Part shown: positions 3,429-28,215 of the stretch, one piece after another
How positions within the stretch are numbered: position 1 is the first letter of the stretch
How the letters are laid out: each line of letters starts with the position of its first letter
DNA from: an uncultured Bacilli bacterium
Lineage (GTDB): Bacteria > Bacillota_I > Bacilli_A > RF39 > UBA660
DNA length: 64,000 nt
NCBI GenBank assembly: GCA_947626565.1
Contig: CANQSQ010000003.1
Coordinates: 1,518 to 65,517, forward strand
Direction: 5' to 3'
Notes under the pieces: model-generated
The model's input: the letters and a program-made list of their open reading frames with translations, nothing else
Database searches by the model: none
Told to the model about the DNA's origin: nothing
Made by a program: the position numbers and the translations under genes

Positions 3429-3500
3429 ATTTTTTATTGAAGTTACTGGCTATAATGGTTAATTATGTTTGCAAATTATGTGATATTTAAGGAAAAATAG

Positions 3501-4319: not shown

Positions 4320-4539
4320 AACCGCAACATTTATTTAATGGGTGTTGCTTATATCTAATTTAATACAAATAAAAAAAATAAGAAAATGTTTAATAATGGT
4401 GGGAGAGTTGAACATAACATGCAAACATTCAATAAAAAAAAGAATGAAAAGATAGTAGATTTTAAAATAGCAATATTAGGTATCACAGGATGGTGGGCTT
4501 CACATGGACGAAGCTTTATTTTTGGAAAGGAGAATTACA

Positions 4540-5407: not shown

Positions 5408-5456
5408 AAAATACTAAAATATAAAAGAATATTATTAAAATAAGAGGGGTAACTAT

Positions 5457-6641: not shown

Positions 6642-6681
6642 ATAGAAAGGAAGAAACTATAATAAATAGTTAGGAAATATT

Positions 6682-7782: not shown

Positions 7783-7870
7783 TTGTAGTTAGTAATTATA
7801 AGTTTAGTGAAATAATTTGAAACATAAATGATTATGCACCATGAATAAGGTGGGAAAGAGTGAGTGTAAT

Positions 7871-8968: not shown

Positions 8969-9071
8969 CTATATCAATTATTTATTTAGTTAAATAGTAA
9001 AATGCAATTTATATTAAATTAATGAAAAACAAGAGAAAATGTAATTTTTTCTTTAAAAAAATTATAAATAA

Positions 9072-9080
9072 TGATATAAT
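9072..9080 (+). promoter_or_regulatory. candidate internal extended -10 promoter (TGATATAAT)
   Basis: tgatataat lies in the 180-bp gap before the GT2 gene. Confidence 0.35.
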
Positions 9081-9147
9081 ACCAGCTATTATTATTTATG
9101 TATTCTGAAACTTATGTTTATTTGATTGTGAGAGGAATGGTATTTAA

Positions 9148-10086: not shown

Positions 10087-10166
10087 TGTGAGTATAGTTA
10101 TGATTGGAAAAACTATTAGTTCTACTTATCTTTTATTAAGAAAATTGAAGAAAAGGAGTATAAATT

Positions 10167-12528: not shown

Positions 12529-12565
12529 GTATTTAGAATTAAAATTTTTTGAAGGTGATGATTCA

Positions 12566-13131
12566 ATGATAAAAAATAAAAAAGATTATTTAGAATATTT
12601 GAAAAGAGATAAAATAGCTTTAGGAAGGACAGCTAAATTTCCTAGTATGTTTGATTATATTTGGAAATATGAAATTTTATTAAGAAAATGTGAATATCTA
12701 AAAAATTGTGGGGGGGGGTATATAATAAAATATTATTTAAATATTTTATTATAAAGAGAAATAAATTAGGAATAAAGCTAGGTTTTAGTATACCATTAAA
12801 TGTTTTTGACTCTGGTTTAAGTATTGCTCATATAGGACCAATAATTGTTAATGGAGGTGCCAAGATTGGAAAAAATTGTCGCATTCACGTTGGAGTTAAT
12901 ATAGGAACTAAAGCTGGTTTTGAGCATGATGCACCAATACTTGGGGATAATATATACATTGGACCGGGAGCAAAATTATTTGGAAAAATACATATAGCTG
13001 ATAACATAGCTATAGGGGCTAATGCTGTTGTTAATAAAAGTTTTGCTGAAACAGGAATTTCAATAGCTGGTGTTCCAGCTAAAAAAATTAGTAATAAAGG
13101 TACAAAAAATATAATTAAGTTAAATAAATAG
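12566..13131 (+). pseudogene. hexapeptide-repeat O-acetyltransferase (serine-acetyltransferase-like), split by a frameshift at a G9 tract
   Basis: ORF 12566-12754 encodes the family's N-terminal helical part (DYLEYLKRDKIALG...LLRKCEYLKN). ORF 12706-13131 encodes the left-handed beta-helix part (GLSIAHIGPIIVNGGAKIGKNCRIHVGVNIG...). The two frames meet inside GGGGGGGGG, and adding one G would fuse them. Confidence 0.8.
12710..12718. repeat. G9 homopolymer (slipped-strand phase-variation candidate)
   Basis: Read directly: tgtgggggggggta. It is the only long G/C homopolymer I noticed in this very AT-rich window. Confidence 0.95.
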
Positions 13132-13143
13132 GAGGATTTTTTT

Positions 13144-14310
13144 GTGAAAATAGCAGTTGCAGGAACAGGTTATGTAGGATTATCACTTGCTACATTGCTT
13201 AGCCAAAATAATGAAGTTATGGCACTTGATGTCATAGAAGAAAAAGTTAATATGATTAATAATAGGATATCACCTATTAAAGACGAGTATATCGAAAAAT
13301 TTTTTAAAGAAAAACAATTAAATTTAAAAGCAACTCTTGATTATGAAGAAGCTTTTAATAATGCTAAATTCATTATAATAAGTACCCCCACGAATTATGA
13401 TGATGAACTAAACTATTTTGATACTTCTTCCGTTGAAGATATAATTGAAAAAGTTATTAGTATGAATATTGATACAACTATTGTTATTAAATCAACTATA
13501 CCAGTAGGTTTTGTTGAATCTATGAAAAAGAAATATCATATTGATAATATTATGTTTTCACCTGAATTCTTACGTGAAGGAAAAGCTTTATATGATAACT
13601 TATATCCATCTAGAATAATAGTTGGATCTACTGATGATAAAGCTCATTTATTTGCTTCAATTCTAAAGGAAGCTTCTTTAAAAGAAGAGGTTCCTATTTT
13701 ATATATGAATTCAACAGAAGCTGAAGCAGTTAAGTTATTTGCTAATACTTATTTAGCTTTAAGAGTATCTTATTTTAATGAATTAGACACCTATGCTGAA
13801 ATTAAAAATCTAAATACAAAAGATATTATTGATGGAGTTTGTTTAGATCCAAGAATAGGAACTCATTATAATAATCCATCATTTGGTTATGGAGGGTATT
13901 GTTTACCAAAAGATACTAAGCAATTATTAGCTAATTATAAAGATGTACCTGAAAATTTAATAGAAGCTATAGTTAAGGCTAATGATACAAGAAAAGATCA
14001 CATTGTTAATATGGTTTTGACAAAAAAACCTAAAGTCGTAGGAATTTATAGATTGACAATGAAAACTGATTCTGATAATTTTAGAGCTAGTGCTATTCAG
14101 GGTATAATTGAACGTTTAAAGAATAAAAATATTGAGATTATTATATATGAACCAACTTTAAATATTAATATTTTTAATGATTGTTTAGTAGTTAATGATT
14201 TTTCACAATTTTCAGAGAAAGCTGATTTAATTTTGGCTAATAGGCTAGATAGTAAAATTAAGATTTTAAAAGATAAAATATATACGAGAGACATTTTTTC
14301 AAGAGATTAA
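13144..14310 (+). CDS. ugd: UDP-glucose 6-dehydrogenase
   Basis: GTG start with RBS aggagg. Rossmann MKIAVAGTGYVGLS, catalytic-Cys motif GYGGYCLPKDTKQL, FSPEFLREG. Confidence 0.9.
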   Translation: MKIAVAGTGYVGLSLATLLSQNNEVMALDVIEEKVNMINNRISPIKDEYIEKFFKEKQLNLKATLDYEEAFNNAKFIIISTPTNYDDELNYFDTSSVEDIIEKVISMNIDTTIVIKSTIPVGFVESMKKKYHIDNIMFSPEFLREGKALYDNLYPSRIIVGSTDDKAHLFASILKEASLKEEVPILYMNSTEAEAVKLFANTYLALRVSYFNELDTYAEIKNLNTKDIIDGVCLDPRIGTHYNNPSFGYGGYCLPKDTKQLLANYKDVPENLIEAIVKANDTRKDHIVNMVLTKKPKVVGIYRLTMKTDSDNFRASAIQGIIERLKNKNIEIIIYEPTLNINIFNDCLVVNDFSQFSEKADLILANRLDSKIKILKDKIYTRDIFSRD

Positions 14311-14391
14311 ATTTAAATTATAAAGTCAAAATACAAATATTACATAATATTTGATTGAAAATGTAATGAATTGAAAGTGGTGATTTTAAAA

Positions 14392-15435
14392 ATGAAAGAA
14401 ATTAAAAGTATTAATTTTATAAAATTCTTTTCTTTTTTGTCAATTTTTTTGTTACATACTAATAATATAATTGATTTAAAAATAAATTCTTTGTCAAGAT
14501 TTGGAGTAGAAATATTCATTGTTTTATCTGGCTTCCTAATGTATTACAATTATTATGATAAGTTTGACAATACTGGTGAAAAGATACCCTTTTTTTTAAA
14601 AAAACTTAAAAAATTTTATCCATTATTTATAATTTCTTTATTAATTAAATTGCCTGTTACTTTGTATAAATACTATTTGGAATTTAATGGATTAAATTTT
14701 CTATTTTTTACCAATTCAGTATTAAGACTAATTCCATCGCTATTTTTATTTCAAGCTTTTATACCTAGTGAAAAGTATTATTTTGCTTACAATGGTGTTG
14801 CTTGGTTTTTAGATGTTTTGTTCTTTTGTTATTTGTTTACACCATTTCTTGTAGGGCAACTAAAAAAAATAAAGAATAAAATTTTAGCTTCTGTAATTGT
14901 CTTTTTAATACAATGCTTTTACATCCTTATATTAAATAAATATCAAATTAATGAATACTGGTATTATATTTTTCCACTTTCTAGAATATTTGACTATATT
15001 CAAGGAATGTTACTATGCAGTATTTATCTTCATTTAAAAAAATGTAAACAAAATATGAAACCATATATATATATATATACAATAATAGAAGCAATAACTA
15101 TATTTTTAATTTTTGTAGCTTTCTTTAATGATTGGTTTCATTATGATATATTTGTCTTATTAATGTCTCTTATCACAATTTTAGTATTTGTAATATGCAA
15201 AGGTCACATATCTAATTTTTTATCTAAATCTAGAATATTAAATAAATTTGGTAAACTTAATTTGGAATTTTATTTGTTACATCAGCCTATTATAAAATAT
15301 TATGAATTTATTTATCAAAAACTTAATATAATTAATCCATATTTATCTGTTTTTATTATATTTGTCATTTTTGTTAATTTATATTTAATTTCGGTAATAA
15401 TTCATGAAAAACTTTTTACCAAAAAAATTAAATGA
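14392..15435 (+). CDS. membrane acyltransferase family 3 (O-acetyltransferase)
   Basis: Multi-pass membrane protein with FGVEIFIVLSGFLM and WFLDVLFFCY motifs typical of acyltransferase_3. The ORF track start at 14371 is in frame upstream. Stop TGA. Confidence 0.75.
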   Translation: MKEIKSINFIKFFSFLSIFLLHTNNIIDLKINSLSRFGVEIFIVLSGFLMYYNYYDKFDNTGEKIPFFLKKLKKFYPLFIISLLIKLPVTLYKYYLEFNGLNFLFFTNSVLRLIPSLFLFQAFIPSEKYYFAYNGVAWFLDVLFFCYLFTPFLVGQLKKIKNKILASVIVFLIQCFYILILNKYQINEYWYYIFPLSRIFDYIQGMLLCSIYLHLKKCKQNMKPYIYIYTIIEAITIFLIFVAFFNDWFHYDIFVLLMSLITILVFVICKGHISNFLSKSRILNKFGKLNLEFYLLHQPIIKYYEFIYQKLNIINPYLSVFIIFVIFVNLYLISVIIHEKLFTKKIK

Positions 15436-15479
15436 TAAAATGTTCTGTTAAATATTTAATAATTTTTAGAATTTTGCCA

Positions 15480-15488
15480 TGATATAAT
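15480..15488 (+). promoter_or_regulatory. candidate internal extended -10 promoter (TGATATAAT)
   Basis: tgatataat lies in the 110-bp gap upstream of the GT4 gene at 15546. Confidence 0.35.
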
Positions 15489-15545
15489 ATGCTTGATTAT
15501 GTTGATTATTGTTTCATTATATAAAATTAGAAAGGAATATTATTT

Positions 15546-16658
15546 ATGAAAAAGCAACCTCTTATAATTGCTCAAATAATGGGTAAATGGAATGGTGGTG
15601 GTGTTGAAGCAGTTGTTATGAATTATTATAGACATTTAGATAGAAATAACATACAATTTGATTTTATTTGTGATAATGATTCAACTAATATACCATATGA
15701 AGAAATAAAAAGGTTAGGTGGCAAAGTTTTTTTAGTACCACCTTATCAGAAAATATTCGAATATAATAAAGAATTATTTAAAATATTTAAAAAAGAAAAG
15801 TATAAAATAGTTCATTCACACATAAATACTTTGTCAATATTTCCATTGAGAATAGCAAAAAAAGCAAATATACCAGTGCGTATAGCTCATAGTCATTCGA
15901 CCTCTAATAAAAAAGAATGGAAAAGGAATTTAATAAAGCAATTATTAAGACCATTTTCAAAAATGTATGCAACTGATTATATGTGCTGCAGTGAGTTTGC
16001 TGGAAGATGGCTTTTTGGAGATAAAGAATTTGACAAGGGAAATGTATATCTTTTAAACAATGCAATAGATGTAGATAAATTTAAATATGATGAAAAGATA
16101 AGAAAAATGAAAAGAGAAGAATTAGGCATAAATAAGGATACTCTAGTGATAGGTCATATTGGAAGATTTGTTTCTCAAAAGAACCATACATTTTTAATTG
16201 ACATTTTTAAAGAAATACATAGACAAAATAAAAATACAACACTTTTATTGGTTGGACAAGGACCCCTTAAGAAGACAATAGAAGAAAAAGTAAAAGTATT
16301 GAACTTAGAAAATAGTGTTATATTTTTAGGACAAAGAGAAGATGTTAATGATTTGTACCAAACTATGGACGTATTTGTATTGCCAAGCCTTTATGAGGGG
16401 CTTCCTGTTGTTGGAGTTGAAGCTCAAGCGAGTGGTCTTTTATGCATGTTTTCTACTGACATGACAAGAGAAGTAAAAATATTAGATACATCTATTTTTA
16501 TACCTTTGGAAAAGTCAAGCAGTTATTGGGCAAAAAAAATTATGGATAATTATACTGCAAATAAAAGAAAAGATGAAAGAAAAGCTGTTACTATGGCTAA
16601 TTTTAGTATTAATGAAGAAGCACAAAAACTAGTAGAAAAATATAAATCTTTAATATAG
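15546..16658 (+). CDS. glycosyltransferase family 4
   Basis: GRFVSQKNH and PSLYEGLPVVGVEAQASGL motifs of GT-B/GT4 enzymes. Confidence 0.85.
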   Translation: MKKQPLIIAQIMGKWNGGGVEAVVMNYYRHLDRNNIQFDFICDNDSTNIPYEEIKRLGGKVFLVPPYQKIFEYNKELFKIFKKEKYKIVHSHINTLSIFPLRIAKKANIPVRIAHSHSTSNKKEWKRNLIKQLLRPFSKMYATDYMCCSEFAGRWLFGDKEFDKGNVYLLNNAIDVDKFKYDEKIRKMKREELGINKDTLVIGHIGRFVSQKNHTFLIDIFKEIHRQNKNTTLLLVGQGPLKKTIEEKVKVLNLENSVIFLGQREDVNDLYQTMDVFVLPSLYEGLPVVGVEAQASGLLCMFSTDMTREVKILDTSIFIPLEKSSSYWAKKIMDNYTANKRKDERKAVTMANFSINEEAQKLVEKYKSLI

Positions 16659-16670
16659 GAGTTATTCTTT

Positions 16671-19043
16671 ATGAAAAAAGTGGGAATTGTATCGTGTTAT
16701 TTTAAAGAAAATTATGGAAGTGTCCTTCAAGCATATGCAACTCAAAGATTTTTGAATAATAATAATGTACAAAATGAAACTATTGAAATAGAAAAAAATA
16801 TTGATTTTAAGAATGGCAAAAAAAAGTTTTATCTTTCTCAAATTATGAATTTTAACTTTTTAAAAACAAAGTTTGGAATGGTAAAATTTAAAATAGATAA
16901 AAAAATCAAGAAAAATTTAAAACAAAATATTTTGATAAGAAATAATGAATTTAAAAAATTTAAAAATAATTTTAGTTTATCCAAAAGTTGTAACACTTAT
17001 AATGAATTGACGGAGTTATCAAAAAATAATTATTCAGACGTTATAGTTGGTAGTGATCAACTATGGCTACCAGTAAATGTTGTTGCTGATTACTATACTT
17101 TGAATTGGGTACCAAATGATATAAATAAAATTTCTTATGCCACAAGTTTTGGAATTTCTGAAATACCCAATAAATATCAAAAATTATATAAAAAGTTTTT
17201 GAAAAGAATTAATTATTTGTCAGTAAGAGAGGAAACTGGTGTAAATTTAGTAAAAAAAATGGCAAATAAAAATGCTAAATTAGTGTGTGATCCTGTATTC
17301 CTTTTAACTAAAGAAAAATGGGATGAGATAGCACCTAAAGAAAGAGTTATAAAAGATAAATATATTTTATGTTACTTTTTAGGAAATAATATTAATCATA
17401 GAAAGTTTGCAGAAAAACTAAAAGAAGCAACTGGCTATAAAATAGTTTCAATAAATCATTGTGATGAATATGTAAAATATTCAGACAAATTTGCTGATAT
17501 TATACCATACGATGTTGGTCCAGATAAATGGTTGGATTTAATAAAAAATGCTGAATATGTATGCACTGATTCTTTTCATTGTACTGCCTTTTCAATAATT
17601 TACAATAAAGAATTTTTTGATTTTAGAAGATATAGTTCTAAAAATAGGAATTCCACTAATTCAAGAATTGATTCATTACTAAACTCATTAAAAATAGATA
17701 AAAATAGAATTTTAGCTGGGACTGAGGATGTAATAGATATTTTAAATCTTAAAATAGATTACGAAAAAGTAAACAAAAAATTAGATGAAATTTCTAAAAC
17801 TTCAGGAGAATGGTTATTAAATTCTATTAAGTGGAAAAAAGAAGAAAGTAAATATATAAAAATTACTAATAAAGAATTTTGTACTGGATGTACTGCTTGT
17901 AAAAATATTTGTCCCAAAGATGCAATAGAAATGATAAGGGATGAAGAAGGTTTTTTATATCCAAAGGTAAATGAGCAAAATTGTATAAAATGTGGTTTAT
18001 GCAAGAAAATCTGCCCAGTATTAAATAAGCTATTAAGAGAAGATTTCAAACAGGAAGGATATATTTTTCAGCATAGTAATAAAAAAATAAGAAAAGAAAG
18101 TACAAGTGGTGGAGCTTTCACTGCAATATCTGAATATATATTAAAAAATGGAGGAGTTGTTTATGGTGTTGGCTTTGATTCTAACTTTAATGTTAAACAT
18201 ATAAGAATTACACAAGAAAAAGATTTATATAAATTTAGAAATTCTAAATATGTCCAGAGTGATCCCAATTCTACATTTTTACAAGTATTAGATGATTTGA
18301 AAAAGAACTTGTTAGTTTGTTATAGTGGCACGGCTTGTCAGATTGAAGGATTAAAGGCATTTTTAAGGAAAGATTATGAAAATCTTATTACTGTTGATGT
18401 AGTTTGTAGGGCAGTTCCTTCACCATTATTATGGAAAAAATATTTTGATTATAGGAATAATCAAAAAAATATTAAAAAAATATATTTTAGAGAAAAATTT
18501 TATGGTTATAAATATTCCAATTTAAGTATTTATAATGAAAATGACTGTATTTATCATAACGGTATAGATACGGATCCATATCTACGAGCGTTTTTTTCTA
18601 ACATTGCATGTAGACCATCGTGTTATAATTGTCATTTTAAGGAACAATTGCATAAGTCTGATTTTACAATATGGGACTGCTTTGAAGTAGATAAATTTTC
18701 CAAAGATTTTGATGATGACTTAGGTACTACGAGAGTGCTTATTAATAGTCAAAGAGGCAGGAAAATTTTTGACAATATTAAAATAGAACATAAATACAAA
18801 GCAATTGATGTTAATATATTGGTAAATAATTTTTATCAAATGTTTAATTCTATAAAATATAATTCTGAAAGAGAGCAATTTTTTGAAGATTTAAACAATG
18901 CTGATTTTAACTCCGTTATTAACAAGTATTTTCCAAATAATATTAAGTGTATGATAGAAAAATATTCTAGAAAAATATTAATATTTATTGGAATATATAA
19001 ACCACTATTAAAATTGGGAAGAAAATTAAGAAGGCGTGACTAA
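16671..19043 (+). CDS. fusion protein: polysaccharide pyruvyl transferase + 2x[4Fe-4S] ferredoxin + coenzyme F420 hydrogenase/dehydrogenase beta (FrhB)-like domain
   Basis: The N-terminal ~390 aa have pyruvyl-transferase features (VGIVSCYFKENYGSVLQAYATQ, VGSDQLW). The centre is CTGCTACKNICPKDAI...CIKCGLCKKICPV (two CX2CX2CX3CP clusters). The C-terminal ~330 aa resemble the FrhB-like family (SGGAFTAISEY, GTACQIEGL, VDVVCRAVPS). Confidence 0.7.
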   Translation: MKKVGIVSCYFKENYGSVLQAYATQRFLNNNNVQNETIEIEKNIDFKNGKKKFYLSQIMNFNFLKTKFGMVKFKIDKKIKKNLKQNILIRNNEFKKFKNNFSLSKSCNTYNELTELSKNNYSDVIVGSDQLWLPVNVVADYYTLNWVPNDINKISYATSFGISEIPNKYQKLYKKFLKRINYLSVREETGVNLVKKMANKNAKLVCDPVFLLTKEKWDEIAPKERVIKDKYILCYFLGNNINHRKFAEKLKEATGYKIVSINHCDEYVKYSDKFADIIPYDVGPDKWLDLIKNAEYVCTDSFHCTAFSIIYNKEFFDFRRYSSKNRNSTNSRIDSLLNSLKIDKNRILAGTEDVIDILNLKIDYEKVNKKLDEISKTSGEWLLNSIKWKKEESKYIKITNKEFCTGCTACKNICPKDAIEMIRDEEGFLYPKVNEQNCIKCGLCKKICPVLNKLLREDFKQEGYIFQHSNKKIRKESTSGGAFTAISEYILKNGGVVYGVGFDSNFNVKHIRITQEKDLYKFRNSKYVQSDPNSTFLQVLDDLKKNLLVCYSGTACQIEGLKAFLRKDYENLITVDVVCRAVPSPLLWKKYFDYRNNQKNIKKIYFREKFYGYKYSNLSIYNENDCIYHNGIDTDPYLRAFFSNIACRPSCYNCHFKEQLHKSDFTIWDCFEVDKFSKDFDDDLGTTRVLINSQRGRKIFDNIKIEHKYKAIDVNILVNNFYQMFNSIKYNSEREQFFEDLNNADFNSVINKYFPNNIKCMIEKYSRKILIFIGIYKPLLKLGRKLRRRD

Positions 19044-19475
19044 ACTATTTATTAAAAGCAGTACTATAAAAACATGTGATAAAAGTTATATGTAAATTAC
19101 AAAATTTAAAATTTGATGAGTTTGAATAATAATAGGATATAAGATATTAAATTATTAAAAAACTTTTTTTAGCATAGCATAAATTAATTTAAAAGAGAGA
19201 AAATAAATATTCTCTGTCAAATAGTGTTGATAGACAATAAAAATGATAAATGAATTAAAATATAGAGGATGATTAAAGTCATCCTTGAATAATTTTTTTG
19301 ATATAAAATGGTTTAACTTTGATAACATTCATAGGTGGCTTTTAATTCTTGATTAGTATTTATCATAAAAGTAACCATTTTTTTGAGATATAATTTTCTT
19401 AAAATATTTATAGTAATGATTAATATTAATTATATAGGTGCTTATTTAGGCACTTTTTATTTTGTAAATTTTTAG

Positions 19476-19657
19476 TACTACTGGCTATAGAGCCAGTGGT
19501 TGATAAAAAATACTACTGGTTCTACAGCCAGTATGAAATAGATATTATGTACTGGTCTTAGAGCCAGTATTGATAAATAAATTTGGTACTGGCTCTGTAA
19601 CCAGTAGTGAATAGATAAATGTGGTACTGGTTGTAGAGCCAGTACTTTTGTTTTTTG
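19476..19657. repeat. five tandem ~35-39-bp units, each with a TACTGGYT-loop-AGCCAGTA hairpin; last unit followed by a T-run
   Basis: Units start at 19476, 19511, 19550, 19587 and 19625. Stems are ACTGGCT/AGCCAGT, TACTGGTT/AGCCAGTA, TACTGGT/GCCAGTA, TACTGG.T/A.CCAGTA and GTACTGGTT/AGCCAGTAC. Linkers share tgaWtaRataaat. Non-coding. Confidence 0.9.
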
Positions 19658-19751
19658 TAATTATTGTTATTTGTAATAAAACTTAATCTTAATTTTAAAT
19701 ATTTTGTACTAATTTAGTTTCTTACTTTATTTAAAAATAAATTCTCTTTAC

Positions 19752-19777
19752 ATATATTAACGTTTATGTTAATATAT
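19752..19777. promoter_or_regulatory. candidate operator: 10-bp inverted repeat ATATATTAAC-n6-GTTAATATAT upstream of the toxin-antitoxin pair
   Basis: A perfect 10/10 inverted repeat 55 bp upstream of the toxin ATG, overlapping AT-rich -10-like hexamers. The downstream HTH protein is a plausible binder. Confidence 0.4.
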
Positions 19778-19832
19778 ATTTATAAATTAGAAAAATTTTT
19801 GAAAGGAGAAAAGTAGGGAGGTTTTACAACTA

Positions 19833-20168
19833 ATGAATATAATATATACTAAGAGTTATGATAGAATGGCTAAAGGTCTGAAGAAACATATTAATGAAAA
19901 GAATACTTTAGAAGTTATAAAAGAATTAATTGAAAATTCAAGTGATTTTGCTGAATTAAAAAACAATCCTATAGCTAAAAGATATAATTATGAATGACTA
20001 AAACACCAATTAAATGAATTTTGGTCTTTTTATCTTGATAAAGATGGTGGAGTAATTAGACTTATAGTAAAACCTACTGAAAATACTGATGAGTTATATT
20101 TAGTATTTGTGAGCTTTGATCACTATGAAGATTTTTCTAAGGAAAAGGTGATTTATTATGATGAATAA
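19833..20168 (+). pseudogene. RelE/HigB-like toxin interrupted by an in-frame TGA (19995-19997)
   Basis: Translation: MNIIYTKSYDRMAKGLKKHINEKNTLEVIKELIENSSDFAELKNNPIAKRYNYE*LKHQLNEFWSFYLDKDGGVIRLIVKPTENTDELYLVFVSFDHYEDFSKEKVIYYDE. RBS gggagg. It overlaps the start of the downstream HTH gene by 11 nt, which is a toxin-first HigBA-type order. Confidence 0.55.
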
Positions 20169-21186
20169 ATTTGGTAGTCAATTGGGTGAATTTTTAAATG
20201 ATAATAATATTAGTATTAAAGAATTTGCTAATAGAATTAATACTTCTCAAAAAAATCTGATTGATATTTTAAAAGGAAAAATAGAGTTATCTCAAAATAT
20301 GATTTATAATATTTCTTTTGTTACTAGTATTCCAGTTAATTATATTGAGAATGTAGAATCTAATTATAAATTAGAAGTAACACTAAAAAAATTTCTTGAA
20401 GAAAGAAATATGACGGTAAGAGAATTTATTAATAAATTTAGTTATAAAGAATTTTCTAAAAAATATAATTTTAAATTTAGTGATGAAAGAAATGATTATA
20501 GTATAGCTAAAGGCATATTAAAGTATTTAAGAATAACTGATCCTAGTCTGTTGTACAAAAAAGATAATACTATTTTTTATAAAAGTAAAAATGACAAGAT
20601 TGAATTGTTAGTTTTATGGTTGGAAAGATGCTACAAGATTGTATCTGAACAAAAAATTAGTGAATATAAGAAAGAAAATATTGATATTGTGGTTGACTAC
20701 ATAAGAGATTGTGCAGCTAATGATGAGTTTAATGAAAAAAAGTTAATTACTAAATTTAATGATAATGGTATATATTTGGCAATTGAAGATGATTTAAAGG
20801 GTTCAAAAATTAGAGGAGCTTTTAAAGTGTTAAATGATAAACCAGCTATTTATATTACTAGAAAACATAAAAGATATGCCGATGTTTACTTTGCTTTGTT
20901 ACATGAGTTAGCTCATTGTAAGAGTGATTTTAATAGGGCAAAAAATGGATCACTTGTGTCATTTCAAGATGAAACGATGGATGATGATTATGAAATTAGA
21001 GCAGATAAGACAGCATTTAATTGGATGGTAGATGATCAATTATATAATAAAATAAAATATAATTATAATAATATTGACAAATTTGAAGTTGTAAAATCAT
21101 TCTTTGTATATAGATTAGCAAATGATAAAATTATCAGTTATGCTTCTAAATTATATCAGGAAAATAATAAAATAATAGTAAAGTAA
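20158..21186 (+). CDS. XRE-family HTH fused to ImmA/IrrE-type zinc metallopeptidase domain (HigA-like partner)
   Basis: N-terminal HTH (ISIKEFANRINTSQKNLIDILKGK). C-terminal HEXXH motif in YFALLHELAHCKSD, typical of the COG2856/ImmA family. Confidence 0.8.
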   Translation: MMNKFGSQLGEFLNDNNISIKEFANRINTSQKNLIDILKGKIELSQNMIYNISFVTSIPVNYIENVESNYKLEVTLKKFLEERNMTVREFINKFSYKEFSKKYNFKFSDERNDYSIAKGILKYLRITDPSLLYKKDNTIFYKSKNDKIELLVLWLERCYKIVSEQKISEYKKENIDIVVDYIRDCAANDEFNEKKLITKFNDNGIYLAIEDDLKGSKIRGAFKVLNDKPAIYITRKHKRYADVYFALLHELAHCKSDFNRAKNGSLVSFQDETMDDDYEIRADKTAFNWMVDDQLYNKIKYNYNNIDKFEVVKSFFVYRLANDKIISYASKLYQENNKIIVK

Positions 21187-21214
21187 AACTTTCTTTTCAA
21201 TTTTATATAAAGTA

Positions 21215-21223
21215 TGTTATAAT
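21215..21223 (+). promoter_or_regulatory. candidate extended -10 promoter (TGTTATAAT) for the LCP gene
   Basis: tgttataat lies 37 bp upstream of ATG 21260. Confidence 0.4.
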
Positions 21224-21259
21224 CATTTTATGATAAAATAGATGATGAGAGGTTTTTAT

Positions 21260-22783
21260 ATGGGAAAAGAACAGAATGTAAATGAAGAAAAAGAAGAAAT
21301 AAAAGAAACTAAAGAAGAAAAGCAGGAACAAGAAGATAAACCAGTAAGACACAGAAAAAAATATGTTAAGAAAAAAAGATTTAAAAAAATTAATATTTTA
21401 GGACTAATTAGTTTAATTTGTCTTAGTGTTTTCTTAGTTTTATTTGTAAGAATGGGTGTTTTACCTTTACCTTATTTGATTGTTTCTATTAATTTATTTA
21501 TAATATTTCAGGTAATTGGTATTGTCTTAATTAATGTAAAAAAGAAAGCACTTAAAACAATTGGAATTATTTTGTTATGTTTATCAATACTAATAAATGG
21601 TGCTGGAAGTTATTATTTATATCATACCAATAAATTTTTAGATGATTCTTTTGGTAATGATGTTTTGATAAGTACTGATACTTATTATATAGTTACTAGT
21701 AAAACTAGTGGTTTAACTAAAGATACTATTCAAAATAATGTTTCTTATTATGATGGAACTAATAAAAATGAAAAAGCTCTTAAAAAGATTAATGAAATGT
21801 ATGATGTTCAAATGAAACCATATGTTGATTTGGTATTAATGTTTAATGATATATTAGCAAATACAGCTAATTATATGTATATAGAGAAAAATCAATTTAA
21901 TTATGTTATTGAATTAAATGATAGTTTAAATAAGGATGATTTTGTTATTTTAGATAAAATTGATATCAAGACAAAGACAACTATTAAAAAAGCTGAGGTA
22001 AAAGATACATTTAATATATATGTTGGTGGTGTTGACTTTACAGAGAATTGTGTAGATTTTAATATGATAATTAGTATTAATACAAAGACAAGTGCTGTTG
22101 TATTAACAAGTATTCCAAGAGATTATTATATTGAAGCTGTAGGTTATAATGGAGCATATGATACACTTAGTTTTATGGGACCATATGGTATAGAGACATC
22201 AATGAAGTCTATTGGAAAGTTGTTTGACATTGATATTGATTACTTTATAAAATTGAATACAACTAGTTTAGTTGAAGTAGTCGATAAAGTAGGGGGAATT
22301 ACTTATTGTAGTGATGAAGCTTTTACTACGACACATGCCCTAGTTTTAGATACATATGATGACAGAGGACAAAAGTTACATGTTGATAAAGGATGTCAAG
22401 AAATAAATGGAATTCAAGCTTTGACGATTGCGAGAGAAAGAAATGCTTTTGTTGGAAGAGATAGAGTAAGACAAGAGAATTGCCGTAAAATATTATTAGC
22501 AATCTTAAAGAAATTGAATAATGTTAATACTATAAAAAATTATACAGGTATTTTAGATTCATTTAGTAATTTGTATGAAACAAATATTCCTAAAGAAGTT
22601 ATTAGTAATATTGCTAAGACGACTTTAAATAATAAAGGAAATTGGAATATAACAGAACAATCAGTTAATGGTGGAGATGGTTTTGATTATGTGCATATGT
22701 CTGGTTTAAAATCATATGTAATGATACCAGATATGAATACAGTAAATGCTGCTAGTAGTAAAATAAAGGGAATTGTTAAGTAA
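21260..22783 (+). CDS. LytR-CpsA-Psr (LCP) family glycopolymer ligase
   Basis: Lys/Glu-rich cytoplasmic head, TM segments, then the LCP core with VLTSIPRDYY, LSFMGPYG and ALTIARERNAF...RVRQENCRKIL. ATG 21260 has RBS gagagg. The ORF track start at 21242 is in frame upstream. Confidence 0.85.
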   Translation: MGKEQNVNEEKEEIKETKEEKQEQEDKPVRHRKKYVKKKRFKKINILGLISLICLSVFLVLFVRMGVLPLPYLIVSINLFIIFQVIGIVLINVKKKALKTIGIILLCLSILINGAGSYYLYHTNKFLDDSFGNDVLISTDTYYIVTSKTSGLTKDTIQNNVSYYDGTNKNEKALKKINEMYDVQMKPYVDLVLMFNDILANTANYMYIEKNQFNYVIELNDSLNKDDFVILDKIDIKTKTTIKKAEVKDTFNIYVGGVDFTENCVDFNMIISINTKTSAVVLTSIPRDYYIEAVGYNGAYDTLSFMGPYGIETSMKSIGKLFDIDIDYFIKLNTTSLVEVVDKVGGITYCSDEAFTTTHALVLDTYDDRGQKLHVDKGCQEINGIQALTIARERNAFVGRDRVRQENCRKILLAILKKLNNVNTIKNYTGILDSFSNLYETNIPKEVISNIAKTTLNNKGNWNITEQSVNGGDGFDYVHMSGLKSYVMIPDMNTVNAASSKIKGIVK

Positions 22784-22848
22784 TTGACAATTCTTTTTTT
22801 TTAAGATTATTTGTGGTAAAATATTATTATAATGATGGAGATGATGTG

Positions 22849-24321
22849 ATGAAAGATGATAAAAGAAATTTTTATTTAGCGATAATTGTGTTTATTAGTA
22901 TTTTTACAATATGTTCTACGACGTCTTTTTTATATCCATTTTGTGATGAATCACATTGCTTTTTTAATGTGGGTAAAGCAATTTTAAATGGTCGGGTTTT
23001 ATATAAGGATATTTTAGAACAAAAGGGTTTATTAATATATATTATTCAGATACCAGCTTATTTAATTTCACATACTAATTTTTTTGGTGTTTGGTTAGTT
23101 CAATTATGTTTTATGATACCTAGTGCTATAGCAATTTATAAGATAGCTAACTTTTATTTAAAATCATCATTTAAAAGTTTAATTGCTACAAGTTTGTGTG
23201 CTTTTATAATATTTACCTCTAATGCTTTAGCTAGTGGACAAGTAGTAGAAGTTTATGCTTTACCGTTTTTCTTATTTCCTCTATATTGGGCTATTAAATA
23301 TATAAAGGAAGAAAATTTAATTCCAAATAAAAAAATATTTATATGTGGTTTATTCGCGGGAATTGTTTTTTGGATGAAATATTCTTTATTAGGCTTTTAT
23401 TTTGGGTATATGGCTTATATTTGTATTAGACTTTTGAGTGAAAAAAAGATAAAAGAGGCATTTAAAAAAGGATTTATATTTGTGGGTGGTTTTATTCTAG
23501 TTAGTGTTCCGTGCATTTTATATTTTGTTTTTAATGATGCTACTAAGGAATTACTTGATTATTATTTTTTGAATAATATAGTAGGATATGGAACACAGCT
23601 TACTTTTATTTCAATGTTAAAAGTATATTGGCATAGTTTTATTCAACAATTCAGATGGAATTTATTATTAATGATATCCTTATTAATAGGGTTGATTTAT
23701 GTATTGAAGAAGATGAAATTTAAAGATAGCTTATTAATTGCAGTTACATTTATAATTCAATATGCCATTATTTTTAGCCATGGAGGAATGTATGCATATT
23801 ATTTGTTTGCCTTTTCATGCTTTGCTATTTTTGGTTGTGTGGCTATACTTGATATAAAATTTGTAAAAACCAAGGCTTTGCCTTGGTATATAGTATATAC
23901 TATATGTTTATTCTTTATTGTAATGGCTAATATATTTAAACCATGTCCTAATCAATTTTTAAAAAAACCACAAAAACTAGCTCAATATCAATTTGCAGAT
24001 TATATGAATAGTCATTATAAAAAACCAACAATGTTGGATTTAGACTTAGATGGAGGTTTTTATACAGTGGCTGATATAGTGCCAAGTACTTGGGCATATT
24101 GTAAATTGAATTGGGGTAATTCTAAGATGATAGATGATCAAAATAATACAATTAAGAATAAATTAGTCGATTTTATTGTTTTTAGGCAAATAGAGGGTGA
24201 AGAGAAAAGAAAGGTACCTTATTTAGAAGAAAATTATAAGTTAGTTAAAAAGGTTGGGCAATATAGGGATGATATTTATATAACTTATTATTTATATGAA
24301 GTTGTTAGAGAGAAAGTTTAA
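22849..24321 (+). CDS. GT-C fold membrane glycosyltransferase (PMT_2/ArnT-like)
   Basis: About 11 hydrophobic segments. The first loop, FCDESHCFFNVGKAILNGRVLYKDILEQKGLLIY, resembles the D/E...G..(L/P)Y.D...KGP motif of family-39/83-like enzymes. Soluble C-terminal domain. Start 22849 has RBS ggaga. Confidence 0.5.
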   Translation: MKDDKRNFYLAIIVFISIFTICSTTSFLYPFCDESHCFFNVGKAILNGRVLYKDILEQKGLLIYIIQIPAYLISHTNFFGVWLVQLCFMIPSAIAIYKIANFYLKSSFKSLIATSLCAFIIFTSNALASGQVVEVYALPFFLFPLYWAIKYIKEENLIPNKKIFICGLFAGIVFWMKYSLLGFYFGYMAYICIRLLSEKKIKEAFKKGFIFVGGFILVSVPCILYFVFNDATKELLDYYFLNNIVGYGTQLTFISMLKVYWHSFIQQFRWNLLLMISLLIGLIYVLKKMKFKDSLLIAVTFIIQYAIIFSHGGMYAYYLFAFSCFAIFGCVAILDIKFVKTKALPWYIVYTICLFFIVMANIFKPCPNQFLKKPQKLAQYQFADYMNSHYKKPTMLDLDLDGGFYTVADIVPSTWAYCKLNWGNSKMIDDQNNTIKNKLVDFIVFRQIEGEEKRKVPYLEENYKLVKKVGQYRDDIYITYYLYEVVREKV

Positions 24322-24408
24322 TTTCTCTTTTTTTATAACTTATATTTTTCTTTATTTATGGTAGTGATTGTGTTATTATAAATAATTAAATAAATGGAGG
24401 TAGAGTTG

Positions 24409-27400
24409 ATGAAATTACAGGTAAAATATATAAAAGAGCGAATAAAAGCTGTTCAAGAGAAGATAAGAAGATATCTTAAAATTAGATTAGCAAAGAATGT
24501 AGACTATGCACCTCTTTCTCCAGTAGAAATTGTAGAAGAACATATTGATGAATACATGAAAGTTTTAAATATGGTTATAAATAATGATGAGTTAAATAAT
24601 GTAGCAATAACAGGGGGATATGGTACAGGTAAAAGTTCCATAATAAAGACGTTTATAAAACGACTTTGTTTAAAGAAAAAACAATATAGTATTATAACTA
24701 TTGGATCATATTTTAAAGACGAAAGTATTAGAAAAGATGTTTTACAAAGAAATAATTTAAATAATGAAAGTGATGAGGAAAAAGAAAATAAGAATATAGA
24801 AGATAATAAGCAAGAAAAAAGAACATTAGAAGAAAGTAGAGAAAGTGATTACTACTTAAGTGAAGATGAGATAAGATTAGTTAATAAAATAGAAAATGCT
24901 ATTATAAGACAATTACTTTTTAAAAATAACTCAGAAGATATTTTAGAAAGTAATTTCAAAAGATTAAGTAGTAGAAGTCATAGAATTATACAATTATTTA
25001 GTTATTTATATTTACTTTGGTTTGGCTTATTATTAATAATTTTAAAATTTATTTTTACGTATCAAGAAGAAATTACTTCATTTATGATAAATAATTTTTA
25101 TAAGATGGTTGTATTTTTTAATAGTTCTATTTTTGATAAGATTTCTCCGGTAATTATTTTGAGCATAATTATATTATTAATATTTGCTGGTGGTAGTTTA
25201 ATAGTAAGTATTGCTGAAGGGATATTTAAAGCAACTAAGCATTTTAATTTTAGTGTAAAACAGAATAAATTATCATTGGCAGTTAGTTATGATATGGCTT
25301 TTGCTAAGGAACTTAGAGAAATAATAGCTTTTTTTGCCTATAATAAAAAGTGTAGAATAGTCTTCTTTGAAGACATTGATCGTTTTTCAGTTGATGTTAG
25401 TTTGAAAATGGTAGAGGAGTTAAAAGAACTTAATACTATTATTAATAATTCGGATTCGGTAGAACAAAATGTAACTTTTATATATTCTTTTAAAGAGGAT
25501 ATTTTTAAGAATTATAAAGATAAAAGTAAGTTTTATGACTATATTATATCAGTGATGCCTATATCTACTTTTTATAATTCTGCAGAGGTTTTAGAAATGG
25601 CTTTAAAAAAAGCTAATGTAACTTATAAAATTTCTGATAAATTACTAGATATTGTAGCTAATAATATTTATGATGTAAGAACACTTAATTTGATAGTTAA
25701 TGATTTTAAGTTATTTGTGAAAACATTAAAGACCAATAATTATGATAAAGTGTTTGCTATGGTTACATTTAAAAATTACTATATAAAAGAATATGATGGT
25801 ATTTTAGAAAAAGATAATTTTATTGATAAGAGATTTAATGCATATTTTAATAAGAAAAGTGAATTATATAAAATTACTAATCGTAAAATTACTGAGTTAA
25901 AGGGAAAAATAAAAGAGTTTACGAGTGAGGTTTGTAGTAATGTTAGGGAATTGAAACAATTATTATGGTTTAATAATTTTAATAATAGTGTAAATAATAC
26001 TCACATTTTTTGTAATGGAAAATATTATTACTATCAAGATTTTATGAAAGATAACTTTGATATGGAACAGTTAAGAAATAATGAAATTAGGATTTATGGT
26101 GCTTTTAATAATTATTTTGATTATGAATTTGCGGGTGGCAAAGTTAAGTTTTTCGAACGGTTAGATAAAATTACTAATAAAGAGAAGTTACGAGAATTAG
26201 AAGAAGAATTAGCTGCTAGTAAGTATGATTTAGATAGAATTGATGATTTAACAAAGAATGAAGTTATACTAGAATATGGTAAAGAAGAGGTCGTTGTTAT
26301 TGATCTTTTGGATCAATTAATAATTAATAATTTTATTGAAAGAGATTATTTAGATTATATAACGTTACCACCTAGTAATGGTTTAACTGTTAGTGATAAT
26401 AAATTTATTTTTGATGTTAAACATAAAAGTTTTTCAGAAATGACAGGAATAACTAATTGTGCTAAAATCTTAGAAAAATTGGCATTAGAAGAGTTTAATG
26501 GAGTGTATACTTTCAATGTTAACTTAATAAATTTTTTAATTAATAATAAAGACCAGTATACTACTATTTATGGAATGATTTTGGATAATTACAAAAGATT
26601 AGATGATGTTAAGATTAAACAAATTGAAATGCTTTATAATTTTTCATTAGTGGTATATTTAAAATTTATGAATGATATTAATAAAACAGGTACTGATATT
26701 TGGAATGTTTTTATGGATAAGGTTAGTGAAGAAAATAGAAATATTTACAGTAAGATGATGTTTGAAACAATATTATTATTAGATAAAACTACTAATATGG
26801 GAAATAAAAAAACATTTATTGAATATGCTAATGAGTATTTTAATAAGACAGCTAATATAAGGGAAAACTTTGCTATGCTTTTTAGATTAACGGATAACGT
26901 TAAAAGAAATTTAGTAAAATTATTGGGTTATAATTTACGAATTATTGATTTAAATGAATTTTTAGAAAAAGAAAAAGACTTTTTTATTAATAATGGAATG
27001 TATTATTATAATATAAATAATATGAAAGAAATATTGAAGTTTATACCTACTAGTCTAAGTAATAGTGCTTTGAAAGGAATAAGAGAAGGAGAAGTATTTA
27101 TTGAGCATATTCTAAATAATTTTAATTGTTTTGCGAAAGAATATTATTTAGAAAATAATTTTAAAATTGATGATAAAGATATTATAAAGAAACTATTACT
27201 GAGAAATGATATAGCACCAGAAATTAAGAAAGAAATCTTAAAACGGGAGCAGTTTACGGTATATAAGGATGAAGTAGACGAGGGTTTTGATGAGTTGATG
27301 TTTGAATATAATCATTGGACTAGTTCTTGGATTCTTGTTAATTATGTATATGAAAAAATGGGACTAAAAAAAGTAGGTTCTTATGTTTATAAGAATAGAG

Positions 27401-27999
27401 ATACATTATTAAAAGATGCGGGTATTAAAGAAGCAGAAATGGTTGTAAAACCAGAGATAATGGCAGAAATAGTAGTGGAGTTATTAAGAATTGATATTGA
27501 GTTAGATATTGATAAGTTAATGCGAAAATGCTTACAAGAAAAAGACTTTAAATATGAATCATTTAAAATGTTTTATAATAATGAACAAATATTTTTGATT
27601 TTAGAAAAAAATGATTTATTAAAATATGGTCATAAAGCATTTTTAAATAGATTAATAAATATATCCTTAGACTTAGCTTGTGATTACTTAAATAAGTGGT
27701 ATAAGAGTGAAAAAAATATTAAGGATATTTATTTGGATATTAAAAATAATAAGAAATTAATAGCTAAATTATTAAGGGTGATTGAAGATAATGATGCGAA
27801 AATGAAAATTATTTTAGAAGAAGTTAAGAAAGATAATGAACAATTAGGACCATTAATAGAGATAGCTTTTAAAAAAGAAATAAAATATCAAGTTACGTAT
27901 GATTCAGATTTACTAAAGTATATTTTTAAAACTACTATGGCTTCTAAAATATTTAAAAATATTAAGATAATGAAAGGTACTATAGAATTTATCCGATAA
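24409..27999 (+). CDS. KAP-type / YobI-like transmembrane P-loop NTPase (~1196 aa)
   Basis: Walker A ITGGYGTGKSS (about 24610-24640). An acidic low-complexity linker follows. Two TM helices (IIQLFSYLYLLWFGLLLIILKFIF and VIILSIIILLIFAGGSLIVSIAEGIF) come before Walker B RIVFFEDIDRF (about 25353-25385). The last ~850 aa are helical and of unknown function. RBS ggagg before ATG 24409. Confidence 0.7.
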   Translation: MKLQVKYIKERIKAVQEKIRRYLKIRLAKNVDYAPLSPVEIVEEHIDEYMKVLNMVINNDELNNVAITGGYGTGKSSIIKTFIKRLCLKKKQYSIITIGSYFKDESIRKDVLQRNNLNNESDEEKENKNIEDNKQEKRTLEESRESDYYLSEDEIRLVNKIENAIIRQLLFKNNSEDILESNFKRLSSRSHRIIQLFSYLYLLWFGLLLIILKFIFTYQEEITSFMINNFYKMVVFFNSSIFDKISPVIILSIIILLIFAGGSLIVSIAEGIFKATKHFNFSVKQNKLSLAVSYDMAFAKELREIIAFFAYNKKCRIVFFEDIDRFSVDVSLKMVEELKELNTIINNSDSVEQNVTFIYSFKEDIFKNYKDKSKFYDYIISVMPISTFYNSAEVLEMALKKANVTYKISDKLLDIVANNIYDVRTLNLIVNDFKLFVKTLKTNNYDKVFAMVTFKNYYIKEYDGILEKDNFIDKRFNAYFNKKSELYKITNRKITELKGKIKEFTSEVCSNVRELKQLLWFNNFNNSVNNTHIFCNGKYYYYQDFMKDNFDMEQLRNNEIRIYGAFNNYFDYEFAGGKVKFFERLDKITNKEKLRELEEELAASKYDLDRIDDLTKNEVILEYGKEEVVVIDLLDQLIINNFIERDYLDYITLPPSNGLTVSDNKFIFDVKHKSFSEMTGITNCAKILEKLALEEFNGVYTFNVNLINFLINNKDQYTTIYGMILDNYKRLDDVKIKQIEMLYNFSLVVYLKFMNDINKTGTDIWNVFMDKVSEENRNIYSKMMFETILLLDKTTNMGNKKTFIEYANEYFNKTANIRENFAMLFRLTDNVKRNLVKLLGYNLRIIDLNEFLEKEKDFFINNGMYYYNINNMKEILKFIPTSLSNSALKGIREGEVFIEHILNNFNCFAKEYYLENNFKIDDKDIIKKLLLRNDIAPEIKKEILKREQFTVYKDEVDEGFDELMFEYNHWTSSWILVNYVYEKMGLKKVGSYVYKNRDTLLKDAGIKEAEMVVKPEIMAEIVVELLRIDIELDIDKLMRKCLQEKDFKYESFKMFYNNEQIFLILEKNDLLKYGHKAFLNRLINISLDLACDYLNKWYKSEKNIKDIYLDIKNNKKLIAKLLRVIEDNDAKMKIILEEVKKDNEQLGPLIEIAFKKEIKYQVTYDSDLLKYIFKTTMASKIFKNIKIMKGTIEFIR

Positions 28000-28063
28000 A
28001 GGTAGTATAAACTAGGTAGTTAATTAATACTAAACTTGTATATTGAATAGTCGTTTGAAAAGG

Positions 28064-28098
28064 AAAAAGTTAAATTCAGTAGATGAATTTAACTTTTT
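28064..28098 (+). terminator. intrinsic terminator after the NTPase gene
   Basis: aaaaagttaaattca-gtaga-tgaatttaacttttt: 10-bp core stem with A/T extensions and a trailing T-run. Confidence 0.7.
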
Positions 28099-28215
28099 TA
28101 GGTTGTTTATACTTTGAAAAAATATTTTTAGACATTTTACCTATTTAAAATTTTATGCTTAAATAAGTGCATTAAATTTAGACAAATTTCCATATTATTA
28201 AATAGGAGGGGTAAA

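Follow-up and report, generated by a model that had tools for sequence, protein, structure and literature searches.

A probable divergent member of the Tmn/YobI anti-phage NTPase family beside a capsule locus in an uncultured low-GC Bacillota lineage

We analyzed a stretch of 64,000 nucleotides from an uncultured Bacilli bacterium (assembly GCA_947626565.1, contig CANQSQ010000003.1, positions 1,518 to 65,517 of the forward strand; hereafter the window), in which a large gene next to a capsule-type polysaccharide locus encodes a membrane NTPase of 1196 amino acids. The gene is probably a divergent chromosomal member of the described Tmn/YobI family of single-protein anti-phage systems, carried by an uncultured, low-GC, spore-forming lineage of Bacillota. 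Membership of the Tmn/YobI family is close to certain and, by homology with E. coli Tmn, an anti-phage role is likely; the specific output reported for the family, Mg2+ export and plasmolysis, can be extended to the host of the window only tentatively.

Tmn was first reported as a defense gene by Gao et al. 2020 (as cited in PMC13001434), and a preprint of March 2026 describes it as a YobI-family NTPase with two transmembrane (TM) helices inside its P-loop domain (Wu et al. 2026; PMC13001434). The window protein scored 203.9 bits with the Pfam model YobI-ATPase (PF20693; cut-off 27, E = 7.2e-60), covering profile positions 1-360 of 363, and the PADLOC model for Tmn (PDLC02220) gave E = 1.8e-29 and 100 bits, over profile positions 21-531 of 1273 only. 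Both matches had been predicted by an initial annotation of the sequence, which had proposed a candidate single-gene defense or sensor system and named the Tmn class. The same PADLOC model scored 2054 bits over the full length of the Escherichia coli Tmn protein WP_223364258, and 198-272 bits with YobI proteins of Bacillota and Bacteroidota that are closer to ours. BLASTP against WP_223364258 (1271 aa, plasmid NZ_CP101258) aligned window residues 28-713 colinearly over 741 residues, of which 24% were identical (E = 4e-33). When a profile of 62 sequences, consisting of the window protein and 61 homologs, was compared with it in hhalign, the alignment spanned 1093 columns (residues 20-1145 against 18-1212; probability 100%, E = 3.5e-71) at 17% identity, and homology to Tmn therefore covers the arms of the protein as well as the NTPase. 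A tblastn search of plasmids with the NTPase domain returned 636 records, mostly IncF-type E. coli plasmids, whose homologs carry the NCBI name "anti-phage transmembrane ATPase".

The initial annotation had called the protein KAP/YobI type, of which the YobI part stood and the KAP part did not. Membership of the KAP family in the strict sense was rejected, as KAP_NTPase (PF07693) had no match at E ≤ 1 among the 14 Pfam families listed; precomputed domain matches placed a KAP match alongside YobI in only 2 of 68 homologs. The window protein does share with KAP NTPases (Kidins220/ARMS, PifA; Aravind et al. 2004, PMC416466) a P-loop NTPase with TM helices and large helical extensions, and the group includes conflict or defense roles (PifA), but it has two TM helices where those proteins have four. 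In NCBIfam the sole match was a sub-threshold one to Orc1/Cdc6 near Walker A, and weak similarities to the STAND-type Pfam families NB-ARC and AAA_16 in the same place fell below cut-offs. These recall the Avs and other bacterial STAND NTPases, which likewise fuse a P-loop NTPase to a repeat-type sensor recognizing a phage protein; unlike them, the window protein lacks a soluble effector domain and its NTPase is itself inserted in the membrane. Within the YobI family, whose Pfam model is passed across its whole length, called "YobI family P-loop NTPase" at NCBI, the protein has the size and layout of Paraclostridium P0040 (1230 aa) and Flavobacterium P0055 (1306 aa), but these named members are only 25-28% identical to it; a resemblance to Bacillus subtilis YobI, after which PF20693 is named, is presumed from that family name.

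An AlphaFold2 (AF2) model of the window protein, built on the alignment of homologs, had a mean predicted local distance difference test score (pLDDT) of 82.3. As modeled, the protein matches the published Tmn layout, its P-loop being anchored in the membrane and followed by a proximal arm of coiled coil and a distal arm of alpha-solenoid type, and it has a small beta-rich domain besides (Table 1). The Walker A (ITGGYGTGKSS) and Walker B (RIVFFEDIDRF) motifs had been read correctly and conform to GxxGxGK[ST] and hhhhEDxDR. Hydropathy and the AF2 model also agreed with the initial annotation in placing two strong TM helices inside the P-loop domain, between the two Walker motifs (hydrophobic segments 192-220 and 239-275, with Kyte-Doolittle-type maxima of 2.2 and 3.0). 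On the cytoplasmic side, the two helices are bordered by basic residues (KRLSSRSHR before TM1 and KATKHFNFSVKQNK after TM2), which predicts a cytoplasmic location for either half of the NTPase. The acidic linker before the helices, given as about 130 residues, proved far shorter: about 48 residues (103-150, with 15 D/E against 10 K/R) are disordered and mildly acidic, and the remaining stretch from Walker A to TM1 contains a beta-strand and conserved helices.

Because the ATPase domain extends to about residue 470, the non-ATPase C-terminal part measures about 725 residues and not the 850 proposed; it is mainly helical, as had been described, apart from the alpha/beta subdomain at 532-563 and the beta domain at 1159-1195. 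The first helix of the proximal arm is 54 residues long in the AF2 model, and this arm aligns to E. coli Tmn residues ~420-600. The distal arm is presumed to be the trigger sensor. In Foldseek searches the N-terminal part recovered ORC/Cdc6- and AAA+-like cores (probability ~1.0, low template modeling scores) and the C-terminal part gave weak matches to the ARM/HEAT solenoids of Rif1, CIP2A, She4p and CRM1; no Foldseek match in the PDB reached E ≤ 0.001, and a sequence search of the PDB with the window protein gave nothing below E = 0.2. Neither search matched a deposited model of Tmn.

Mutations of the variant Tmn-25 that abolish defense have been reported at G66/K67, Y262, D276/R279, N297, K325/F326 and R374 (PMC13001434). 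We mapped these residues through the pairwise alignment with WP_223364258 and the 62-sequence homolog alignment, and six of the seven essential ATPase positions were conserved in the window protein. The equivalents of G66/K67, D276/R279 and R374 (G74/K75, D322/R325 and R424) were invariant in the 62 homologs, that of N297 (N346) was found in 59 of the 62, and those of K325/F326 (K374/F375) in 62 and 61 respectively. At the position of Y262, where 50 of the 62 homologs have Tyr, the window protein is the only one with Ala (Ala307); a Tyr lies four residues further on, in a short insertion, in seven homologs including the window protein. Residues E321, D324, D377 and K455 were also invariant. 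Where the alignment is less dependable, the proximal-arm residues Y541/R544 and F506 of Tmn correspond to F581/R584 and M552.

The window protein and E. coli Tmn have the same domain order over their whole length (Walker A, a two-TM hairpin, a Walker B of the form EDxDR, then, in the AF2 model of the window protein, the coiled-coil proximal and alpha-solenoid distal arms), and both are encoded by a single gene without an operon partner. The window protein is 75 residues shorter, its acidic, disordered insert behind Walker A is longer, and it has Ala at the Tyr262 position; its gene is chromosomal and sits in a Gram-positive-type, LytR-bearing, low-GC Bacillota, whereas E. coli Tmn is carried on an IncF plasmid.

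The closest full-length homologs were 29-38% identical to the window protein, and this identity was unevenly distributed. It reached 50-57% over Walker B and the lid (residues 281-470) and 37-56% on the Walker A side (61-190), and fell to 27-35% in the distal arm (631-1155), 20-29% in the proximal arm (471-630) and 12-23% in the TM hairpin (191-280). A conserved NTPase with divergent arms is the pattern expected of a sensor and suggests one here, as reported for Tmn sensors, in which variability is concentrated in the C-terminal region (PMC13001434). The C-terminal 726 residues alone found 22 representatives among 1.84e9 proteins; the long matches fell in the corresponding C-terminal part of proteins ~1,000-1,200 aa long, and the others were shorter or partial. 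A genome scan found at least 504 relatives in Bacillota, Bacteroidota, Pseudomonadota and other phyla, and distant family members were present on 38 viral or prophage contigs. The nearest genome matches were metagenome-assembled genomes labeled uncultured Mycoplasma sp., Candidatus Faecimonas intestinavium (Bacilli incertae sedis) and uncultured Bacilli. Relatives of the window genome carry the sporulation genes for GerA, SpoIIM and a SpoIVB-type peptidase.

All Tmn variants assayed so far (from clades Ia, Ib and VIII of a 785-sequence phylogeny with clades Ia-IX) were tested in E. coli (PMC13001434). There, Tmn is described as a membrane decamer, from an 11.6-angstrom map combined with AlphaFold 3 modeling; its coiled-coil proximal arm and ARM/HEAT-like solenoid distal arm set specificity, and binding of T2 RIIB leads to raised ATP turnover, Mg2+ export and plasmolysis (PMC13001434). 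How the protein works and what its long C-terminal region does, both of which the initial annotation had taken to be undescribed, are therefore on record for the family. By homology, the window protein would oligomerize in the membrane, as the E. coli decamer does, and its fast-evolving arms would bind an early phage protein. Such binding would stimulate ATP hydrolysis and the export of ions (Mg2+), and the export would collapse the cytoplasm and the ATP pool, at which point phage replication would stall. Since the arms are hypervariable, the trigger is presumably a different one, and it is not to be taken as RIIB-like by default.

The open reading frame 24394..27999 (+) is the longest of its neighborhood and it is real: GC content is 22-30% across the very AT-rich window, and in DNA of 23% GC, with a stop probability of ~0.10 per codon, 1200 stop-free codons would arise by chance with a probability of ~1e-56. 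Its first ATG, at 24394, overlaps the Shine-Dalgarno sequence, and the likely start is the ATG at 24409, from which all residues are numbered here. This start is preferred because GGAGG lies 8 nt upstream of it and because its 1196-aa product is an exact match to the protein on record at NCBI, which lies on a 76,093-bp contig; the 1201-aa version starting at 24394 has no NCBI protein record.

The ribosome-binding site and terminator recognized in the initial annotation were both recovered, the latter with a predicted energy of -15.8 kcal/mol (z = -5.36, none of 200 shuffles being equally good). Upstream, the hairpin of the preceding 502-aa membrane protein gene (-10.4 kcal/mol, z = -2.7) sets that gene apart from the Tmn unit. 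The promoter-like element between the two genes is a predicted one, found by consensus match only. At the same upstream position, the related YobI loci L002, L003, L004 and L087 carry TTGAC[TA]-17nt-TAT[TA]AT, and the motif ATTATAAATAATTA[AG]AT is common to the upstream regions of the window gene, L004 and L087. Most loci of the clade show the terminator of the preceding gene and then this promoter sequence and a ribosome-binding site before the YobI gene. Judged from these signals, the Tmn gene with its own promoter-like element, ribosome-binding site and terminator is a predicted stand-alone transcription unit. The earlier description of a stand-alone gene is borne out in this respect and, as shown below, by a single-gene presence/absence polymorphism in a related species.

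The window gene abuts the 3' end of a cps/eps-type polysaccharide locus, and this position recurs throughout its close clade (29-36% identity). In all eight lineages sampled (the window, P0001, P0004, P0008, P0009, P0014, P0018 and L009) the YobI gene lies within a cps/LytR locus or at its 3' end, on the same strand. It follows Polysacc_synt in P0001 (L002) and LytR in both P0009 (L004-L006) and P0008 (L087/L088); in P0004 (L003) it stands between cps genes and DUF2130, acetyltransferase and LytR genes, and in P0018 (L090) ~3.6 kb past the last cps gene. The order in P0014 (L089) is LytR-YobI-LytR-VanZ-Wzz-CpsD-CpsB, and in L009, which came from the genome scan, the gene is again flanked by two LytR paralogs. 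When cps, LytR and flank markers were searched by tblastn against 86 loci, they were found in L002-L009 only, and the cps/LytR markers were present in none of 77 more distant family loci (23-28% identity), Bacillota included. Comparison of the window with L004 gave identities of 63-70% for the flanking GT1, pyruvyl-transferase and Bac_transf proteins, 46% for LytR and ~31-33% for the YobI proteins.

The far-side flanks of the YobI gene differed between all lineages, and the only adjacent genes common to members of the clade were those of the cps/LytR locus. Conserved housekeeping contexts, which the initial annotation had named as a ground for doubt, were thus not what the homologs showed, their sole conserved neighbor being a variable cps/LytR locus. 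The survey of the Tmn family reported no conserved operon architecture or neighborhood (PMC13001434), in contrast to the position of this clade at cps-locus flanks, and among the papers available to us we found no precedent for defense genes fixed at the flanks of capsule loci. The clade-wide position is the sole unusual feature of the gene and what is new relative to the described Tmn family, a modest observation that merits a systematic census; apart from it the annotation is an expected one, and pipelines based on PADLOC or Pfam would flag the gene already.

Several observations bear on whether the gene is a fixed part of such loci. The contig L092 is conspecific with L004, which carries the orthologous cassette in a species related to that of the window; the two are 92% identical through LytR and 98.5% identical over 10 kb downstream. 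L092 lacks exactly L004:9893-13588, a 3.7-kb cassette comprising the YobI gene and its promoter region (L092 11408-11409), and there the stop codon of LytR runs directly into the terminator hairpin that follows YobI in L004. The left boundary of the cassette falls in the last LytR codons and the right one just before the shared hairpin; no flanking direct repeats were seen at the L004/L092 boundaries. Naturally occurring strains of the L004 and L092 types form a matched set, the former having the cassette and the latter lacking it. A metagenome scan by LytR alignment yielded 80 loci, of which 41 were informative (at least 4 kb downstream of LytR). A YobI gene was present in one of these 41 (L126, where it is of another subtype and 5 kb away) and in none of the 13 with a LytR at least 40% identical to that of the window. 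P0009 was 100% identical between loci in which the cps sets differed and LytR was only 86% identical, and hence it does not co-vary with polysaccharide type. An obligatory cps component was rejected on the grounds of the empty site and the LytR-locus survey. A conserved position beside mutS was also rejected, since neither cps nor YobI genes lay upstream of mutS in genomes with 84-87% identical MutS; a search with MutS had returned thousands of metagenomic relatives at 83-87% identity. The empty site, the rarity in LytR loci, the lack of co-variation, the predicted transcription unit of its own and the lack of a housekeeping position together argue that the gene is an accessory, self-contained cassette. 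The YobI clade has remained at a locus that is variable and prone to recombination. The likeliest reading of its capsule-flank position is that the gene was inherited or co-transferred, perhaps with capsule switching, along with a region under phage selection that recombines readily, and that it has no part in making polysaccharide.

A number of points weigh against the conclusion that this is an anti-phage gene of the Tmn type. The Tmn mechanism rests on a preprint with a map at 11.6 angstroms, and the tested variants all fall outside the clade of the window protein. The partial coverage of the Tmn profile may fail PADLOC's own coverage rule. Ala307 stands at a position where the mutation Y262A abolished defense by Tmn-25, and the TM hairpin is too poorly conserved to point to a particular exported ion, if there is one. 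A classical defense island, for which the initial annotation had proposed to check, is absent around the gene (its surroundings being polysaccharide genes, SDR, LemA, TPM and MutS), and the sole defense-like neighbor is an HTH-peptidase protein encoded at 20158 (PD-Lambda-2_B). Finally, proximity to cps/LytR genes is kept across the clade despite local rearrangement, which functional coupling would also give.

Such coupling would mean that the proximity of the YobI clade to the cps/LytR locus is function and not hitch-hiking, for example in a membrane ATPase that monitors or regulates the attachment or export of capsular or wall polysaccharide, or in a defense that detects capsule-targeting phage at the envelope. 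The same-strand placement in eight of eight close-clade lineages would fit this, as would the position between two LytR paralogs in L089 and L009 (with Wzz-CpsD-CpsB next in L089), the persistence of the link although local order and far-side flanks differ, its confinement to the close clade and the predicted embedding of the protein in the membrane. We nevertheless regard an envelope-linked function as unlikely, since the conspecific strain without the cassette keeps LytR, the LytR terminator and all far-side genes, 40 of the 41 informative LytR loci have no YobI gene, P0009 is unchanged across differing cps sets, most clade loci place a separate promoter after a terminator, and homology to the experimentally validated anti-phage Tmn is full-length. 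We give an equally low probability to the broader proposal that the clade is physically and functionally tied to the capsule/LytR-CpsA-Psr locus of uncultured low-GC gut Bacilli, as a membrane sentinel or as part of a two-layer anti-phage unit. If the sentinel form were true, the assembly state of surface polysaccharide or a capsule-dependent phage attack would set off a Tmn-type collapse of ATP and ions; in the two-layer form a receptor variant and an abortive switch would be co-inherited with capsule loci.

It is improbable that the gene acts in conflict with other mobile elements, by plasmid or conjugative exclusion, or as a general stress or abortive switch with a non-phage trigger. PifA, a related KAP ATPase carried by plasmids, serves as an exclusion factor (PMC13001434), the family is frequent on conjugative plasmids (480 of the 636 plasmid matches) and on prophage-like contigs, and hypervariable arms would be consistent with such a role; however, all family members assayed so far were scored against phage and protected, and plasmid exclusion is not known to be linked to any YobI protein. 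We consider it very improbable that the gene has become inactive or is decaying, as a relic kept beside the cps locus after loss of a residue essential in E. coli Tmn. Such decay would account for Ala307, the sole Ala among the 62 homologs, and a nearby toxin gene is probably a pseudogene; but all 1196 codons are open in 23%-GC DNA, the remaining catalytic residues, the ribosome-binding site, the promoter-like element and the terminator are intact, and Tyr is also lost at the Tyr262 column in 12 of the 62 homologs, and seven, the window protein included, carry a Tyr four residues on. As a probable anti-phage gene, it would extend the recently characterized Tmn family into an uncultured, very AT-rich Bacillota lineage. 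A member 24% identical to E. coli Tmn, with a different envelope, hypervariable arms and Ala at a position essential in E. coli, offers a natural test of which E. coli Tmn features are general.

Table 1. Features of the Tmn/YobI gene, its predicted product and the neighboring genes in the window.
Feature	Position	Strand	Residues	Basis or remark
Tmn/YobI protein, full coding sequence	24409..27999	+		1196 aa
Terminator-like hairpin + T-run of upstream 502-aa membrane protein gene	24309..24334	+		AGAGAAAGTTTAATTTCTCT then T7
Promoter-like element (predicted)	24355..24391	+		Weak -35 TTTATG; -10 region TATAAA within motif TATAAATAATTAAAT common to clade
Ribosome-binding site GGAGG	24396..24400	+		8 nt before ATG 24409
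YobI-ATPase domain match	24553..25818	+	49-470	Pfam PF20693
Walker A GGYGTGKS	24613..24636	+	69-76	Motif
Disordered, mildly acidic low-complexity insert	24715..24858	+	103-150	pLDDT <50 at 110-147
TM helix 1 (predicted)	24973..25059	+	189-217	Hydropathy maximum 2.21, AF2 helix
TM helix 2 (predicted)	25123..25239	+	239-277	Hydropathy maximum 3.02, AF2 helix
Walker B IVFFEDIDR	25357..25383	+	317-325	Motif
Proximal arm	25819..26298	+	471-630	AF2: helix 471-524, alpha/beta subdomain 532-563, return helices 578-613
Distal arm	26299..27873	+	631-1155	AF2: ~35 short helices (633-1153), alpha-solenoid-like, pLDDT mostly 80-95
Small C-terminal beta-rich domain	27874..27996	+	1156-1196	AF2 strands 1159-1163, 1183-1188, 1191-1195
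Intrinsic terminator of Tmn gene	28063..28099	+		16-bp stem + U-run
cps/eps-type polysaccharide locus through LytR/CpsA + 502-aa membrane protein	1223..24321	+		Tmn gene abuts 3' end
PS-pyruvyl transferase + 4Fe-4S/FrhB-FdhB-like fusion	16671-19043	+		790 aa; in L004 at 2407-4782
YafQ/RelE-like toxin frame	19833-20165	+		NCBIfam TIGR00053, E = 8.6e-5 when read through
HTH-peptidase protein	20158-21186	+		342 aa; XRE/HigA-like N-terminal HTH, HELAH (HExxH) in C-terminal half
LytR/CpsA	21242-22783	+		Followed by 502-aa membrane protein gene
Polytopic membrane protein	22813-24321	+		502 aa; ~9-10 hydrophobic helices + ~120-aa soluble tail
37-codon open reading frame	28216-28329	+		Strong ribosome-binding site AGGAGGGG; just past Tmn terminator
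SDR-family oxidoreductase	28338-29492	-		384 aa; converges on Tmn terminator region

The cps/eps genes of the window (1223-19043) encode CpsC, the tyrosine kinase CpsD, CpsB, Bac_transf, GT1/GT2, EpsG and a TupA-like protein, as well as UDP-glucose dehydrogenase, an acyltransferase and the PS-pyruvyl-transferase/FrhB fusion, which is kept in L004 at 64-70% identity and corresponds to two separate genes in L090. The last cps biosynthesis gene is followed by a 1.1-kb spacer with an array of palindromic repeats. The palindrome, TACTGG-N8-CCAGT(A) of 19-20 nt, occurs there in five copies (19479-19645, with a period of 35-38 bp), and a sixth copy at 3501-3519 lies between cpsB and the gene for the priming transferase, which are 1.1 kb apart, such that the copies bracket the variable part of the locus. 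In all, 12 strand-matches were counted against 0.19 expected, and the palindrome was found in none of 214 related loci fetched. Terminators, operator sites or recombination sites are possible roles.

The toxin-antitoxin module that the initial annotation had placed adjacent to the Tmn gene lies 3.2 kb upstream (19833-21186), beyond the genes for LytR and the 502-aa protein, and its YafQ-like toxin gene is probably a pseudogene, an in-frame TGA at 19995-19997 interrupting its reading frame. Genetic code 4, which would explain this TGA, was rejected (Trp is encoded by TGG, and long open reading frames contain no in-frame TGA). The 342-aa HTH-HExxH protein next to it matched the PADLOC model PD-Lambda-2_B (E = 4.6e-20) and may be a second defense-related gene that travels in the neighborhood. 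A homolog 65% identical to it is encoded immediately downstream of the YobI gene in L087 (13748-14773) and L088 (11421-12446), and one of 22-23% identity lies ~4 kb from the YobI gene in the Bacteroidales locus L068.

The 502-aa membrane protein had no Pfam, NCBIfam or PADLOC match, and none of the related loci encodes a homolog; a role as GT-C-like glycosyltransferase or cps polymerase is possible. Past the Tmn terminator, the unannotated 37-codon frame encodes a peptide (MLKSLLICLLIILLLFIYCALRVSSMCDEEEEKKTFK) that is hydrophobic with an acidic tail and resembles a small membrane protein or a type I toxin, with no family match and no homolog in related loci. Both proteins were rejected as conserved partners of the Tmn protein, their homologs being absent from all related loci. 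Downstream of the Tmn gene, the SDR gene on the minus strand is followed by those for LemA, TPM and MutS; in the SDR protein the SDR domains end at about residue 260 and a C-terminal extension of ~120 aa remains. A T-box leader (Rfam RF00230; 94.4 bits, gathering score 93) was found at 43950-44123 (+), before an open reading frame at 44157. Contigs of the P0009 species differed from one another past the Ppx-GppA gene, which lies downstream of YobI: L005 carries a large serine recombinase gene and then ABC-transporter genes (10966-12720), and L004 a gene for an MvaI/BcnI-type restriction endonuclease (15140-15889).

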